From: a virus
Length of the DNA: 64,000 bases
IMG/VR virus record: IMGVR_UViG_3300044797_000394
Span: 92,163-156,162 of that record
Strand: one strand, 5' to 3'
The translations under genes were made by a program, and so were the position numbers. This document shows positions 21,474 to 35,940 of this stretch, one piece after another. The notes beneath the pieces are model-generated. The model ran no database searches. It was not told the DNA's origin and saw only the letters and a program-made list of their open reading frames with translations. Within the stretch, counting starts at the first letter, position 1; the number at the start of each line of letters is the position of its first letter.

Positions 21474-21749
21474 ATGGACTACGACGACTTGGAATTTCCT
21501 CCTTCTCATTTGATGAAACCCACGCATCGTGCTTCGGTTGTGGCCGAAGATTTCAAGTGCCCCAAATGCAAGGCACCTATGGTTGAGAAAATAGGGAAGT
21601 TCGGACCATTCTTCGGTTGTGTGCGGTTCCCTTCCTGCAAGGGCTCCCTCGACGTCACCAAGTCCAAGTCCAAGTCCAAGTTTAAGTCGGTCAGCAAACC
21701 GTCCGCCCCAGCAAGGAAGACAGTTTGGGACCACTTGGTCGGGGACTAA
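21474..21749 (+). CDS. topoisomerase I-type C4 zinc finger protein with C-terminal TVWDHL motif
   Basis: CPKCKAPMVEKIGKFGPFFGCVRFPSC; ends KTVWDHLVGD. Confidence 0.8.
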   Translation: MDYDDLEFPPSHLMKPTHRASVVAEDFKCPKCKAPMVEKIGKFGPFFGCVRFPSCKGSLDVTKSKSKSKFKSVSKPSAPARKTVWDHLVGD

Positions 21750-22213
21750 TTGAGAAACTTCTTCGGGACTTCCATCGGCTCCGCTTTGACCTCTTCTTCT
21801 CGGTTGTGCCGATTTCGGTAGGCGATGCCACGGGCGAATTCAATGAGCTCATGCCAGAGGAGTTGAAGCTGACTCATTGCCATTTCAGCGCTGAATGAGT
21901 CACGCGGGTCCTCGGACTTCTGGGCTTTCTCCCGAGCCGCTTCGACCTTGAGATCCTGTTCACCAACGCGGGCTAGTAGCTGCTCGACGTGAGTGATGAA
22001 TACGAGGCGGACCTCATAGTCGCTACGCCGCCTTGCTATAGCCTCCCAGAATTCCTTTGCGGCTTCGTCTGGGGTGTAGTCCTCTCCGTACGAAAGGTCG
22101 CCGTTGGGTTGAATTCGTACAAGCACGCGACCCGAGGAAGTTCCGATCACCAGTTCGTTTGGGTTTCGGGGAATCTTTGAATCGTCTCTATCATCCATTT
22201 TCATAATCCTCAT
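21746..22213 (-). CDS. hypothetical protein
   Basis: Long ORF convergent with Zn finger gene. Confidence 0.6.
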   Translation of the reverse strand: MRIMKMDDRDDSKIPRNPNELVIGTSSGRVLVRIQPNGDLSYGEDYTPDEAAKEFWEAIARRRSDYEVRLVFITHVEQLLARVGEQDLKVEAAREKAQKSEDPRDSFSAEMAMSQLQLLWHELIEFARGIAYRNRHNREEEVKAEPMEVPKKFLN

Positions 22214-22244
22214 GCCCAAGAGAGCCGATAAGTCGACTTTTACC

Positions 22245-22793
22245 CTACTCCTCATCCAGAATGTGTTCGTGCCAGGACTTTTTGGGGGTGGGCGGAACAG
22301 GAGCCTTAGACTCTTCGGGAGGCGGAGAGGGTGAAACTGTCTGAACCTGAACCGGACGTTGGATCCCAGGAACTCTGGTAAAGAGCTCGCGAGAGATACG
22401 AACTGGGGTGGGAGCCAGGTTATCCACTACCCGGTTAATCTCCTCTAGGCTCCGTTCAATCTGATCGTTCAATCCGCTAAGAGAATCGTTGACCGAATTG
22501 AACAGACTTTGACCCGACGTCAAAGGCGGTAGGGGAGGGAGTGGGGGGATTGGCGGTAAAGGTGGAATCGATGGTACAGTCCTTGTCCTTTCAAGACTTT
22601 GCCTCAGTCGTTCAGTTCTTAATCGTAGCGACCGGACCCGTTCTTGTCGGGCTGTTTCGGGGGAGTTTAACAGTAACCCTTGAATTTGTTGACGATGCCG
22701 GCGGCCGCCCAGCCAAATGAGTGTGGCCCAAATGGTAAGTAGGACCGCAGAAAGGCCGTACTCCGCGATAGCCACATAGTTTATCTCATCCAT
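22245..22793 (-). CDS. membrane-anchored Pro-rich protein with C-terminal SWHEHILDEE motif
   Basis: N-terminal TM; CGGTGTA (22805-22811, minus) 11 nt upstream. Confidence 0.65.
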   Translation of the reverse strand: MDEINYVAIAEYGLSAVLLTIWATLIWLGGRRHRQQIQGLLLNSPETARQERVRSLRLRTERLRQSLERTRTVPSIPPLPPIPPLPPLPPLTSGQSLFNSVNDSLSGLNDQIERSLEEINRVVDNLAPTPVRISRELFTRVPGIQRPVQVQTVSPSPPPEESKAPVPPTPKKSWHEHILDEE

Positions 22794-22858
22794 CCACTCT
22801 AGTTTACACCGTCCCCGTAAAATACGGGGTGCCACTTCTTCTTGTGTAGTGGTAAGGT

Positions 22859-23878
22859 GTGGCGTTCGTTGGATTAAAGGTTCCTGTTGAGCTAGGAAGC
22901 CTGTTCAGTCAGGTTGAGGTTCCCGGTCGTAGGGAATCCAAGGACAAGTACCACGTAACCATTCTAAATATGGGAAAAGACGTACCAATCGAGCAGATTG
23001 GCAAAGCCTCAGTCGTTGCCTTCAAAGTCTGCGAACAGACCCCGCCCTTCATGGTTACTACGAAAAAGGTGTCTCAGTTCCCAAAGGGTTCCGATGGGGT
23101 TCCCATCATCGCCCTCATCGAATCCCCCGCCCTGCACAATCTTCAGGCCAACCTCAAGAAGGCCTTCGATAAAGAGGGGGTCAGCTACTCCAAGAAGTTT
23201 CCCGAATTTAAACCGCACGTCACCCTCGCATATAGTGACACAGGTATGCCCGAGCAGGCCATTGTCCCGATCAGTTGGACGGTCAGTGACATCAACCTCT
23301 GGGGCGGGGATTCTGGAGAGGAGCGGATCGTTACCAGGTTCCCCCTTAGCATGGACGCGCATAGCTCTCGGATGGCGTCGGTTAGAAACGATCGGGTGTC
23401 GGCTCTTCGGGTAGCCGCTCGATATCAGATTGCTTGTGAGGGAGGAGTTTGCACTTGCGGCGGTACCTGTTCTTGCGGTAAGTCCTCTGCGAAACGTCAA
23501 AATCCTACGGATGCGACGTTGGGAAAAGTGTGGGAGGAAGGTGGAAAAGCAAAGTTCGTCACCTGGGCAAACCGTAAATTTCTACCAGAATTCAAGAAAG
23601 CTCTAGGCTCTTCGGACAGTGTTGCAGCAGACTTATTCGGAGAGGGCGTTTTCGACAATTTCCTTCGGACGGTTCAAGAACTACCGAACATATCTAAGAC
23701 CTTCGGGTACCCTCTTGCAGGGACTCGTGATGACTCACTAATGGGTATGTGGGGACAAATCATAAGCACCTTGCGATACCGTCACCCGGACTTTCGTAAG
23801 GTGGAAACTCCGTACCGTCTATATGAAAATGATTACGTCACCTTGAAGGGGATTGTCGACACTTTAGGTCGTCGATGA
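22859..23878 (+). CDS. 2H phosphoesterase (ThpR/Acb1-like) fused to C-terminal domain
   Basis: Two HxT motifs (YHVTI, PHVTL); internal ALRVAARY. Confidence 0.8.
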   Translation: MAFVGLKVPVELGSLFSQVEVPGRRESKDKYHVTILNMGKDVPIEQIGKASVVAFKVCEQTPPFMVTTKKVSQFPKGSDGVPIIALIESPALHNLQANLKKAFDKEGVSYSKKFPEFKPHVTLAYSDTGMPEQAIVPISWTVSDINLWGGDSGEERIVTRFPLSMDAHSSRMASVRNDRVSALRVAARYQIACEGGVCTCGGTCSCGKSSAKRQNPTDATLGKVWEEGGKAKFVTWANRKFLPEFKKALGSSDSVAADLFGEGVFDNFLRTVQELPNISKTFGYPLAGTRDDSLMGMWGQIISTLRYRHPDFRKVETPYRLYENDYVTLKGIVDTLGRR

Positions 23879-24723
23879 GCATCGCGCTCCGAGTTGCCGC
23901 GAGGTTCATGATAGCCTCTCTCCTTGAGGAACTTCGGCACAAGATGGATGATCTCCTCAAGGACAGCCCGCTCGACGCGGCTAAGGGAGAAGCCTTAGCT
24001 AAGTGGCTCGAGGATAACTTCTACATTCTGTCCCCGAAGACGCCCAAGGGTCAAAAGGCGGTCAAGGCCATCGCTGAAAAACTGCATTGGTGGCTCAAGT
24101 CAGGCATCCGAATGCATCAGGACCCGGAAGCGCCCAAACGGACGATCGAAGAGACTTGGAAGGAGCTCGAATCACACTTGAGCGACTTCGTCAAGTACTT
24201 TTCGGCTGAGGGCGGCAACGTTGTGCCCAAGGAAATCAAGCTCGACGGGAACACTTTCACCAACGGGGCGGGGCTGAACGAGAAAAAGTTGAACGAGTAC
24301 GCCTCGCGCCTTTCGGACGTCTTCAAGGATCTCAAGGGATGGCGTAGGGGAGCCCTGGAGGGGGGCGTCAGGGTCTACTTTGCCAGCCCTAAGGACTTCG
24401 GCGGAGGGACTGCGGGCGGCAAGTACAAGTCCGACCAGGACGTCTTGTACGTTCGCGCCACGCCCGACGTTCTCAAGCGAGAGGGTAAGTCTTACGCTGG
24501 GTTTGAGTACATCATTGTGCATGAGCTCGGTCATCGGTACGAACGCAAGCATCATGTGCCCACGGACTTCGACCGTCCCGAGTGGCATACGACTCCATAT
24601 TCCAAGAAAGAGGGGGAGGGGTTTGCGGAGCTTTTTGCCCTGACGAACTTCGGGATCACCAACGCCCATACGAACTGGGGATCAGAATTGAACGAGCGTT
24701 TCGAAAAATTAATGGGTGGCTAA
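23875..24723 (+). CDS. zincin-type metallopeptidase domain protein with N-terminal RVAARF
   Basis: IVHELGH, distal TPYSKKEGEGFAE; MSIALRVAARF. Confidence 0.7.
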   Translation: MSIALRVAARFMIASLLEELRHKMDDLLKDSPLDAAKGEALAKWLEDNFYILSPKTPKGQKAVKAIAEKLHWWLKSGIRMHQDPEAPKRTIEETWKELESHLSDFVKYFSAEGGNVVPKEIKLDGNTFTNGAGLNEKKLNEYASRLSDVFKDLKGWRRGALEGGVRVYFASPKDFGGGTAGGKYKSDQDVLYVRATPDVLKREGKSYAGFEYIIVHELGHRYERKHHVPTDFDRPEWHTTPYSKKEGEGFAELFALTNFGITNAHTNWGSELNERFEKLMGG

Positions 24724-35433: not shown

Positions 35434-35462
35434 GGGTGTGCTCTTATCTTTCTTCGAGTGAC

Positions 35463-35541
35463 GCGCCGTTTGCCGAGTGGTCGAAGGCGGCTGGCCCCTA
35501 ACCCAGCTTTTACCGCGGGTTCGAATCCCGCACGGCGCCCA
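35463..35541 (+). tRNA. atypical tRNA with 8-nt anticodon loop CCCCUAAC (CUA, CCU or quadruplet CCUA)
   Basis: Acceptor GCGCCGT/ACGGCGC, D arm GCC..GGC, anticodon stem GCTGG/CCAGC, T arm GCGGG-TTCGAAT-CCCGC. Confidence 0.75.
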
Positions 35542-35545
35542 CAAC

Positions 35546-35620
35546 GCCCCCGTAGCTCAGCGGTAGAGCAACTGATTCTAAACCAGTTGGTCGTGGGTCC
35601 GACTCCCACCTGGGGCGCTA
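35546..35620 (+). tRNA. amber suppressor tRNA (anticodon CUA)
   Basis: GCCCCCG/CTGGGGC acceptor, GCTC..GAGC D arm, loop TTCTAAA with CTA at 35578-35580, T arm GTGGG-TCCGACT-CCCAC. Confidence 0.8.
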
Positions 35621-35637
35621 AGGGTAAGGATCTAAAA

Positions 35638-35940
35638 ATGCCACGACCTGAAGAGTCGCAAGTGTCTAGGATTCGAAGTTTCGTGGCGGAACACCCGGGA
35701 TCCACAGTGGCTCGGGTAGCGAAAGAATTAGATATCGATGATATGCGCGTCGCTGGATGCCTAATCCAACAATGCAACAAGGGCAAAATGGTCCGATTCC
35801 TAGGAAGCGGACCTCGGGGAGGCTTCGGGTACTACATACTAACGCCAGAAATACGTCGAATGATTGAGGGTAAACCGCCGCAAATCACCGACCCGAAAGA
35901 ACCTCCCCGAACGGTGTATTCCCACCTACTGGACGACTAA
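35638..35940 (+). CDS. winged-helix protein with C-terminal TVYSHLLDD motif
   Basis: FVAEHPGSTVARVAKELDI...GKMVR wHTH pattern. Confidence 0.7.
   Translation: MPRPEESQVSRIRSFVAEHPGSTVARVAKELDIDDMRVAGCLIQQCNKGKMVRFLGSGPRGGFGYYILTPEIRRMIEGKPPQITDPKEPPRTVYSHLLDD

Follow-up and report, generated by a model that had tools for sequence, protein, structure and literature searches.

A short peptide recurs at the C-termini of unrelated proteins encoded by an uncultured huge phage. It lies in a 64,000-nucleotide stretch of DNA (the window, bases 92163 to 156162 of the 156-kb IMG/VR virus record IMGVR_UViG_3300044797_000394), in which seven proteins end in it, and an eighth such protein is encoded just upstream. 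We conclude that the peptide, here called the tag, is real, is under selection at the protein level, and is used throughout a clade of related phages. The tag is best interpreted as a docking peptide, or address label, that one co-evolving partner recognizes. That partner, or reader, would appear to be encoded by the phage itself, and the best single candidate, which we put forward tentatively, is the phage's own ClpX unfoldase. Below, coordinates marked "genome" are those of the 156-kb record, all others are positions in the window, and this phage is labeled G000.

The first-pass annotation of the window quoted seven C-termini, all of which are present as quoted and at verified positions. The eighth carrier (genome 89914-90627) ends in ...KTVFDHLLKDDEDT. 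When the regular expression from that annotation was applied to a six-frame translation of the 156-kb contig, it matched exactly eight times, seven of them within the window, and every match stood 2 to 6 amino acids before the stop at the end of an open reading frame (ORF) of 77 to 486 amino acids (binomial P = 5e-6 under a six-frame null and 3e-10 under an ORF null). In 2000 rounds of shuffling of the 25 C-terminal residues of 740 ORFs, the mean was 0.019 matches and the maximum was 2, versus 8 observed, and the C-terminal enrichment that had been predicted for a profile scan is thus present in this genome and is joined by tags in the relatives. A position matrix scored the eight tags at 20 to 33 bits, and the next best site in the genome reached 10.6. 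The one argument for chance resemblance is that the regular expression came from its own instances. Noncircular support, however, comes from relatives: the tag recurs in more than 40 of them and is kept in orthologs at 27 to 59% protein identity, and ~1.2 Mb of DNA around the ClpX genes of unrelated phages contained zero tags. Moreover, the 21-nucleotide DNA of the tag core has a mean identity of only 0.47 between copies, and the codons for Leu, Ser, and Thr differ. Thus, the tag is not a DNA repeat, and selection acts on the peptide, as first proposed. The carriers are also unrelated, as had been claimed, in that blastp detected no mutual similarity. Chance, a DNA repeat, or a gene-calling artifact is extremely improbable as the source of the tag.

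The tag is probably a small helix held on a flexible tether. In this genome, the core reads [ST]-[VAW]-[WFYH]-[DES]-[HRW]-[LIV]-[LMV] and is followed by 2 to 8 mostly acidic residues, such that the tags end in Asp or Glu. A stretch rich in Pro, Lys, and Ser precedes each tag, in agreement with the linker noted earlier. Ser or Thr followed three residues on by Asp, Glu, or Ser is the classic helix capping box, and the aromatic residue and two aliphatic residues, at positions i, i+3, and i+4, lie on one face of a short helix. AlphaFold modeling of the 462-amino-acid carrier (7 sequences; mean predicted local distance difference test score [pLDDT], 61) placed residues 454 to 461, which are the tag, in a detached terminal helix, albeit with low confidence. 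The probable structure is a two-turn amphipathic helix with Ser or Thr as the N-cap and Asp or Glu at N3. An internal copy of the tag had also been reported in a Ser/Thr kinase encoded in the window. The kinase stretch does follow a Pro/Lys linker, but it matches only partially, with Phe in place of His or Arg and Thr in place of Leu or Met, and its matrix score was below 6.

Where the phage belongs is indicated by its proteins. A database protein search found a protein identical to one of this phage on a 463,523-bp contig, and the 156-kb record, for which completeness is estimated at 33%, is therefore a fragment of a huge uncultured phage of ~463 kb. A nucleotide search with the tagged block found no match among cultured phages. 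Likewise, a protein search with a conserved AAA+ protein found, outside an uncultured clade, only relatives of ~30% identity in small phages and no close cultured relative. The phage PurA, taken as a clue to the host, gave matches in Saccharibacteria assemblies only, at 39% identity, which does not indicate a host. Members of the clade were retrieved with three query proteins, namely, the DNA polymerase, ClpX, and the conserved AAA+ protein; they are uncultured phages on contigs of up to 529 kb. Relatives of 360 to 530 kb have 4 to 17 tags each. There are 8 tags in G000, at least 8 in G002 (363 kb), ~17 in G004, ~7 in G006, and at least 16 in G009 (complete, 407 kb), and 3 to 5% of genes are tagged, mostly those for small accessory proteins. 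Five carriers have orthologs in G002 at 29 to 48% identity, every one of which is tagged at the C-terminus.

The tag of the clade comes in two dialects. The W-type, found in this phage, reads [ST]-[VA]-W/F/Y-x-[HR]-L-[LM] plus an acidic tail. The R-type, found in more distant members, reads P-[ST]-R-[FY]-[DE]-[RL]-[ILVF] or, more narrowly, P-[ST]-R-[FY]-[DE]-R-[ILV] and is shorter, more frequent, and located at the very end of the protein or before a short tail. Orthologous carriers use the dialect of their own lineage; in one family, for example, the C-terminus is ...KTVFDHLLKDDEDT here, ...TAYDHLLGDTLGEDE in G002, ...ATRFSRLKDED in G004, and ...NRFTRLFNDDDD in G009. On a tree of the conserved AAA+ protein, the W-type and the R-type are split across one branch with support of 100/100, indicating a single switch. 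Beyond the clade, de novo enrichment found no C-terminal tag in three large unrelated phages that encode ClpX (G028, G030, and G036). An otherwise unrelated, complete 341-kb phage (G020, L235-L252; GC content, 42%), which is without ClpX and has only three proteins in common with the clade, has a tag of its own, ...[GKNS]-R-[ITVA]-L-E-[LIV]-COOH. The G020 tag is present on ~13 proteins (e.g., L236:11025-11291), one of which is its homolog of a Cdc48-like AAA+ protein (3926-5656). We conclude that terminal tags occur in more than one lineage of huge phages.

The history of the tag bears on what reads it. The peptide has been kept on unrelated, fast-evolving proteins and has changed on them in step, which argues for one reader. 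Moreover, each dialect is stable over phages of 48 to 68% GC, the hosts of which probably differ, but from one phage subclade to the other the dialect changes, and for that reason we infer that the reader is phage encoded. The first-pass annotation proposed a docking motif for one hub and named host RNA polymerase among its examples. The docking or address function is strongly supported by the orthologs, the codons, and the in-step change of dialect. A universally conserved host hub such as RNA polymerase, however, is less likely because the tag remains constant over that range of GC content and switches between phage clades. A phage compartment or import machinery, which the annotation also named, is a possible partner.

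Proteins that read terminal peptides were sought in the phages. The dnaN gene was absent from five phage records searched, PDZ_2 was absent from seven clade genomes, and bacterial-type single-stranded DNA-binding protein (SSB), ClpP, proteasome/HslV, and TPR were not found in the phages searched; no recognizable peptide-reading module other than ClpX was found. PDZ ligands end in a hydrophobic residue whose carboxylate is free, and the tags of this genome have acidic ends instead. Ligands of the beta clamp follow QL[SD]LF, and no such Gln/Leu pattern is present in the tags. A resemblance to the tail of HslU, which ends ..SRFIL, was dropped, as there is no HslV in the phages. Other candidates were dropped on sequence grounds, these being that Ser is as common as Thr, that the register is wrong, or that the acidic tail fits poorly: they were an FHA/CK2-type phosphorylation site ([ST]-x-x-[DE]), RVxF phosphatase docking, a Tat signal, a MinD/FtsA-type membrane-targeting helix, the IxI motif of small heat shock proteins, and MIT-MIM.

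The tag could dock on a hub in the replisome, recombination, or transcription machinery of the phage or on a host protein. One variant of this idea is partial mimicry of the tip of SSB, by which the phage would tap the host SSB interactome. The SSB tip is DDDIPF, and T7 gp2.5 and gp4 have acidic tails. Several carriers are indeed DNA related (a topoisomerase-type Zn ribbon, a winged helix-turn-helix protein, and a RecA-like ATPase), and many tails in relatives are acidic with an aromatic or hydrophobic end, such as ...GDDDY, ...GDDDF, ...FDDDLF, and ...REDPL. Conservation is concentrated in the helix core, however, and not in the tail, and no tag in this genome has a terminal aromatic residue. 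The absence of dnaN and bacterial-type SSB and the dissimilarity to the clamp consensus also speak against such a hub, and a conserved host hub would leave both the stability over 48 to 68% GC and the clade switch unexplained. We regard docking on such a hub as unlikely.

The best candidate class for the partner is that of proteases and chaperones, which the first-pass annotation had also named, although the candidate within it is the ClpX of the phage and not a host protein. The phage ClpX retains the GYVG pore loop and an LGF loop, and the latter could dock on host ClpP. ClpX is also encoded by G002, G004, and 10 of 10 further clade contigs of >80 kb, contigs that were not ascertained through ClpX. 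In Escherichia coli ClpX, the RKH loop and Thr199 set specificity for ssrA (PMC7652416). Neither RKH nor any dibasic pair is found at the RKH loop in the 18 distinct ClpX proteins of the clade, which have V-P-R-G-x-G in common instead, and an invariant Tyr takes the place of Thr199 in the alignment. Among 26 other phage ClpX proteins, RKH is present in 7, and RK, RR, or KK is present in most of the others. Moreover, the N-domain of ClpX binds C-terminal peptides on flexible linkers, namely, the XB peptide of SspB (RGGRPALRVVK) and the C-terminal region of FtsZ, including R379 (PMC3983244).

How ClpX might use the tag can be sketched. The tag, on its flexible linker, would be read by one receptor on many unrelated accessory proteins and would tether each carrier to ClpX through the N-terminal zinc-binding domain, the altered pore-entry loops, or both. 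A carrier could be a substrate, to be eliminated at a set time, or an adaptor, recruiting ClpX to DNA or the membrane. For degradation, ClpX would depend on host ClpP, as the phage encodes no ClpP. A receptor that travels with the phage and co-evolved with the tag could have given rise to the two clade-wide dialects. As the identity of the reader, ClpX is the most plausible single choice, yet one we hold with less than even confidence.

Several observations weigh against ClpX as the reader. The link between ClpX and the tag comes from a single clade and phylogenetically is one event. Moreover, G028, G030, and G036 encode ClpX and are nonetheless tagless, and G020 has its own tag on ~13 proteins without ClpX, such that possession of ClpX does not guarantee a tag system, and not every tag system requires ClpX. 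Known pore degrons of ClpX do not resemble tags that end in Asp or Glu at a variable distance from the core, and ssrA variants changed from LAA to LDD escape E. coli ClpX. When the zinc-binding domains of W-type and R-type phages were aligned, no obvious charge switch matched the switch of the tag. The dialects changed only once on the tree, which leaves an analysis of covariation of the dialect with residues of a reader without statistical power. Finally, a second motif, (A/S/T)LRVAAR[FY], is closer to the ALRVVK of SspB XB than the C-terminal tag is, and it may be this second motif that the zinc-binding domain actually binds.

The LRVAAR motif has a distribution of its own. In the form (A/S/T)-L-R-V-A-[AQE]-R-[FYI], it occurs in 12 copies in the contig, at N-termini or domain borders, and 7 copies are within 25 residues of an N-terminus (sites at window 23875-23920, 23400-23430, 18600-18659 on the minus strand, and 4016-7619 and at genome 63828-86783). 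Its bearers are larger and enzyme-like, including an HExxH protein and a LigT-like 2H phosphoesterase, and none is a carrier of the C-terminal tag. The motif is far rarer in the unrelated phages checked. The HExxH protein (window 23875-24723, 282 amino acids) belongs to no Pfam family and is the product of a clade core gene. That gene is directly upstream of clpX or at most one small gene away in G004, G006, G009, and G010 and is fused with the LigT-like gene in G002. The HExxH protein may work together with the phage ClpX.

Two features of clpX itself are noted. The C-terminus of the phage ClpX, ...VVTRTERLLTHG, is R-type-like with Thr for the aromatic residue but is not kept in G002 or G004, and the resemblance is probably a coincidence. 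In one subclade (G004, L041:15735-18074; G009; and L078-L081), clpX has an intein-like insert of ~350 amino acids in the Walker A loop (GPSG-C...HN-TGKT).

We speculate that the huge phages of this clade run an addressing system of their own. A helical C-terminal code on 3 to 5% of their genes would be read by a rewired ClpX, which would act with the HExxH metalloprotease or with host ClpP, and early accessory proteins would be removed or repositioned on schedule, with a dialect for each lineage. This fuller scheme is possible but doubtful.

Another AAA+ protein of the phage could be the reader in place of ClpX, either the Cdc48/p97-like tandem AAA+ protein (genome 74463-76085) or the AAA+ protein beside the tagged block (36456-37715). 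The Cdc48-like protein is a core protein in all clade members at 46 to 66% identity and is one of only three proteins in common with the tag-bearing G020, and the second AAA+ protein adjoins carrier 7 (Table 1) and Hsp20. The Cdc48-like protein (L004:14463-16082), which is found on 45 viral contigs, has an N-terminal 240 residues without Walker motifs, followed by an active p97/NSF D2-like module. AlphaFold predicted that the N-terminal half is a degenerate AAA fold (pLDDT, 90), with no separate domain for substrates or adaptors. Moreover, the homolog in G020 is itself tagged and so client-like, and the AAA+ protein at 36456-37715 is confined to the G000/G002 lineage. Co-occurrence singles out neither ATPase, as phages with both ClpX and the Cdc48-like protein (G028 and G036) and a phage with ClpX alone (G030) have no tag, and a phage with the Cdc48-like protein alone (G020) has a different one. 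Neither protein alone predicts the tag system, and we consider it quite improbable that one of these other AAA+ proteins is the reader.

The carriers of the window and their tags are collected in Table 1.

Table 1. Tag carriers of the window, their tags, the tag-like stretch of the kinase, and the phage ClpX (window positions unless marked genome; aa, amino acids)
Feature	Position	Strand	Length	Description
Carrier 1	21474..21749	+	91 aa	Topoisomerase-type C4 zinc ribbon (Pfam PF01396, E=8e-10); Ser/Lys/Pro linker
Tag of carrier 1	21717-21746	+		KTVWDHLVGD
Carrier 2	22245..22793	-	~182 aa	Coiled-coil-like, then Pro-rich linker regions
Tag of carrier 2	22248-22280	-		KSWHEHILDEE
Carrier 3	25850..26935	+	361 aa (330 aa from 25943)	Cys-rich N-terminal part, long low-complexity region
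Tag of carrier 3	26897-26932	+		TTVFERLMSDDD
Carrier 4	27378..27830	+	~150 aa	No known domain; acidic/Pro linker
Tag of carrier 4	27795-27827	+		KSVWSHLLEDD
Carrier 5	28120..28353	-	77 aa	Pro linker
Tag of carrier 5	28123-28161	-		LSWHDWVMKEDID, register variant S-W-H
Carrier 6	31731..33119	-	~462 aa	Multidomain, CxxC pairs, disordered middle
Tag of carrier 6	31734-31766	-		KTAFDHLLDDD
Carrier 7	35638..35940	+	~100 aa	Pro/Lys linker
Tag of carrier 7	35908-35937	+		RTVYSHLLDD
Partial tag-like stretch	54949-54981	+		TVWDFLTEPDE, in an insert of the Ser/Thr kinase (gene 54772-55743; Pkinase PF00069)
Phage ClpX	genome 82628-83914 (L005:2628-3911)			zf-C4_ClpX PF06689, AAA_2 PF07724, D2-small PF10431

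Pfam and PHROG scans of the carriers found nothing beyond the Zn ribbon of carrier 1 and a weak MarR-like match of carrier 7 (PHROG 1687, E=0.0028), on the basis of which carrier 7 may be a winged-helix protein. Carrier 2 has one N-terminal hydrophobic segment followed by RRHR, which points to a membrane-anchored protein with a cytoplasmic C-terminus. Among ten carriers from relatives submitted to family scans, two were RecA/KaiC-like and one was a Zn ribbon. Tags persist on the orthologs of individual carriers. The Zn-ribbon counterparts of carrier 1 in G002 and G004 are tagged at the C-terminus too, and the G002 orthologs of carriers 3 and 4 (29% and 36% identity) end in ...SAWDHLRDDDEG and ...SAWSRLMETEDD, respectively. 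For carrier 6, all six database orthologs (49 to 59% identity) end in ...T-x-[HYI]-[QE]-R-L-[MI]-x-D-D-[DE]-[YF]. Two carrier ORFs are over-called at the 5' end. Carrier 4 probably starts at 27378 because the ORF from 27228 overlaps the upstream gene, and carrier 7 probably starts at 35638 because the ORF from 35458 overlaps two tRNA genes (35463-35618).

The nature of the carriers bears on another explanation, that the tag loads small proteins into a phage-built structure, with a structural protein as the reader. Examples of such a structure are a replication compartment within the cell and the inside of the capsid, from which the proteins would be co-injected. The architecture is that of cargo-loading peptides, with a folded domain joined by a flexible linker to a short helix at the terminus, the tagged proteins are few and mostly small and accessory, and structural proteins, being products of clade core genes, would co-evolve with the tag. 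Extension of the G020 tag even to an AAA+ ATPase also fits recruitment of clients to an assembly. The membrane-anchored, Zn-ribbon, and winged helix-turn-helix carriers and the RecA/KaiC-like ATPase of relatives, however, look as if they act inside the cell. Moreover, the 156-kb fragment comprises a structural module, the proteins of which reach 2706 amino acids, a replication module (SNF2 helicase, DnaB, family A DNA polymerase, and the Cdc48-like AAA+ protein), and a region of small genes on both strands, and the carrier genes are located in the last region, outside the structural module. No shell protein was identified, though shell families were not searched for, and only the phage's own structural module was seen. 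No known loading peptide resembles the tag, and a different motif, LRVAAR, occupies the N-termini of larger enzymes, the usual place of capsid-targeting propeptides. Loading into a compartment or virion thus has arguments on its side but is, in our judgment, an unlikely account of the tag.

Other features were noted around the carriers. In or beside the tagged block are genes for a J-domain protein (33165-33581), which is a clade core protein, for Hsp20 (35937-36413, minus strand), and for the AAA+ protein at 36456-37715. Of the two adjacent tRNA-like genes, one has an 8-nucleotide anticodon loop containing CCUA and the other has the anticodon CUA. TAG is still an ordinary stop codon, ending 29 of 128 ORFs of at least 100 amino acids, carrier 2 among them. 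The start of the tagged winged-helix gene (carrier 7) is 20 nucleotides 3' of the second tRNA gene. The sequence CGGTGTA is found 9 to 12 nucleotides 5' of the start codon in ~30 nonstructural genes (window 734-61990 and genome 65148 onwards), including clpX, the kinase gene, the AAA+ gene at 36456, and the gene for carrier 2, the ATG of which comes 11 nucleotides after it. In that start-proximal placement, there were zero cases in the structural module, and CGGTGTA may be a promoter of near-leaderless transcripts. As a timing class for carriers, CGGTGTA is present at just one carrier, and no temporal class is defined.

Provided that there is a single reader and that the phage encodes it, the tag marks out a functional class within the dozens of accessory proteins of 300- to 530-kb phages that otherwise cannot be annotated. 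It would also reveal a regulatory layer in giant phages, one of timed disposal or localization. The two dialects amount to a natural specificity-swap experiment, and the tag could find use as a portable and orthogonal tag for degradation or recruitment. Literature searches turned up no account of a C-terminal tag used across the proteome of a phage. Shared terminal address peptides do exist in other settings, in the form of degrons, adaptor tails, and cargo-loading peptides.

How the tag compares with known systems differs from case to case. The SSB tip and the tails of T7 gp2.5 and gp4 are like the tag in having an acidic tail after a disordered linker, and the tails of relatives often end in an aromatic residue. 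The polarity is reversed, however, as here many proteins are tagged for one reader, and the helix core has no counterpart in the SSB tip or T7 tails, nor does this genome have the terminal aromatic residue. The peptides of encapsulins and microcompartments are short terminal peptides or helices on flexible linkers and are common to unrelated cargo, as is the tag. There is no sequence similarity between them and the tag, however, and the tag carriers look like DNA-binding proteins, membrane proteins, and ATPases, not like the enzymes of a single pathway.

Degrons of the ssrA and MuA-type C-motif 2 kind are strictly C-terminal, like the tag, and the degron loops of the phage ClpX are altered, as a changed tag code would need. 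Such degrons, however, are read by their last residues and the free carboxylate, whereas the tag core is 0 to 10 residues from the end, and the tails end in Asp or Glu and vary in length, in contrast to the nonpolar ...AA-COOH of ssrA at a fixed position. The XB peptide of SspB and the tail of FtsZ (PMC3983244) differ from the tag in other ways. The tag is unrelated in sequence to RGGRPALRVVK, is acidic where XB is basic, and is present on 8 to 17 unrelated proteins per phage rather than on one adaptor. Nonetheless, in both cases a peptide sits at the extreme C-terminus behind a flexible linker, one unfoldase site reads or would read different proteins, and the same phage genome that encodes the tags also encodes a ClpX with the C4 zinc-binding N-domain.

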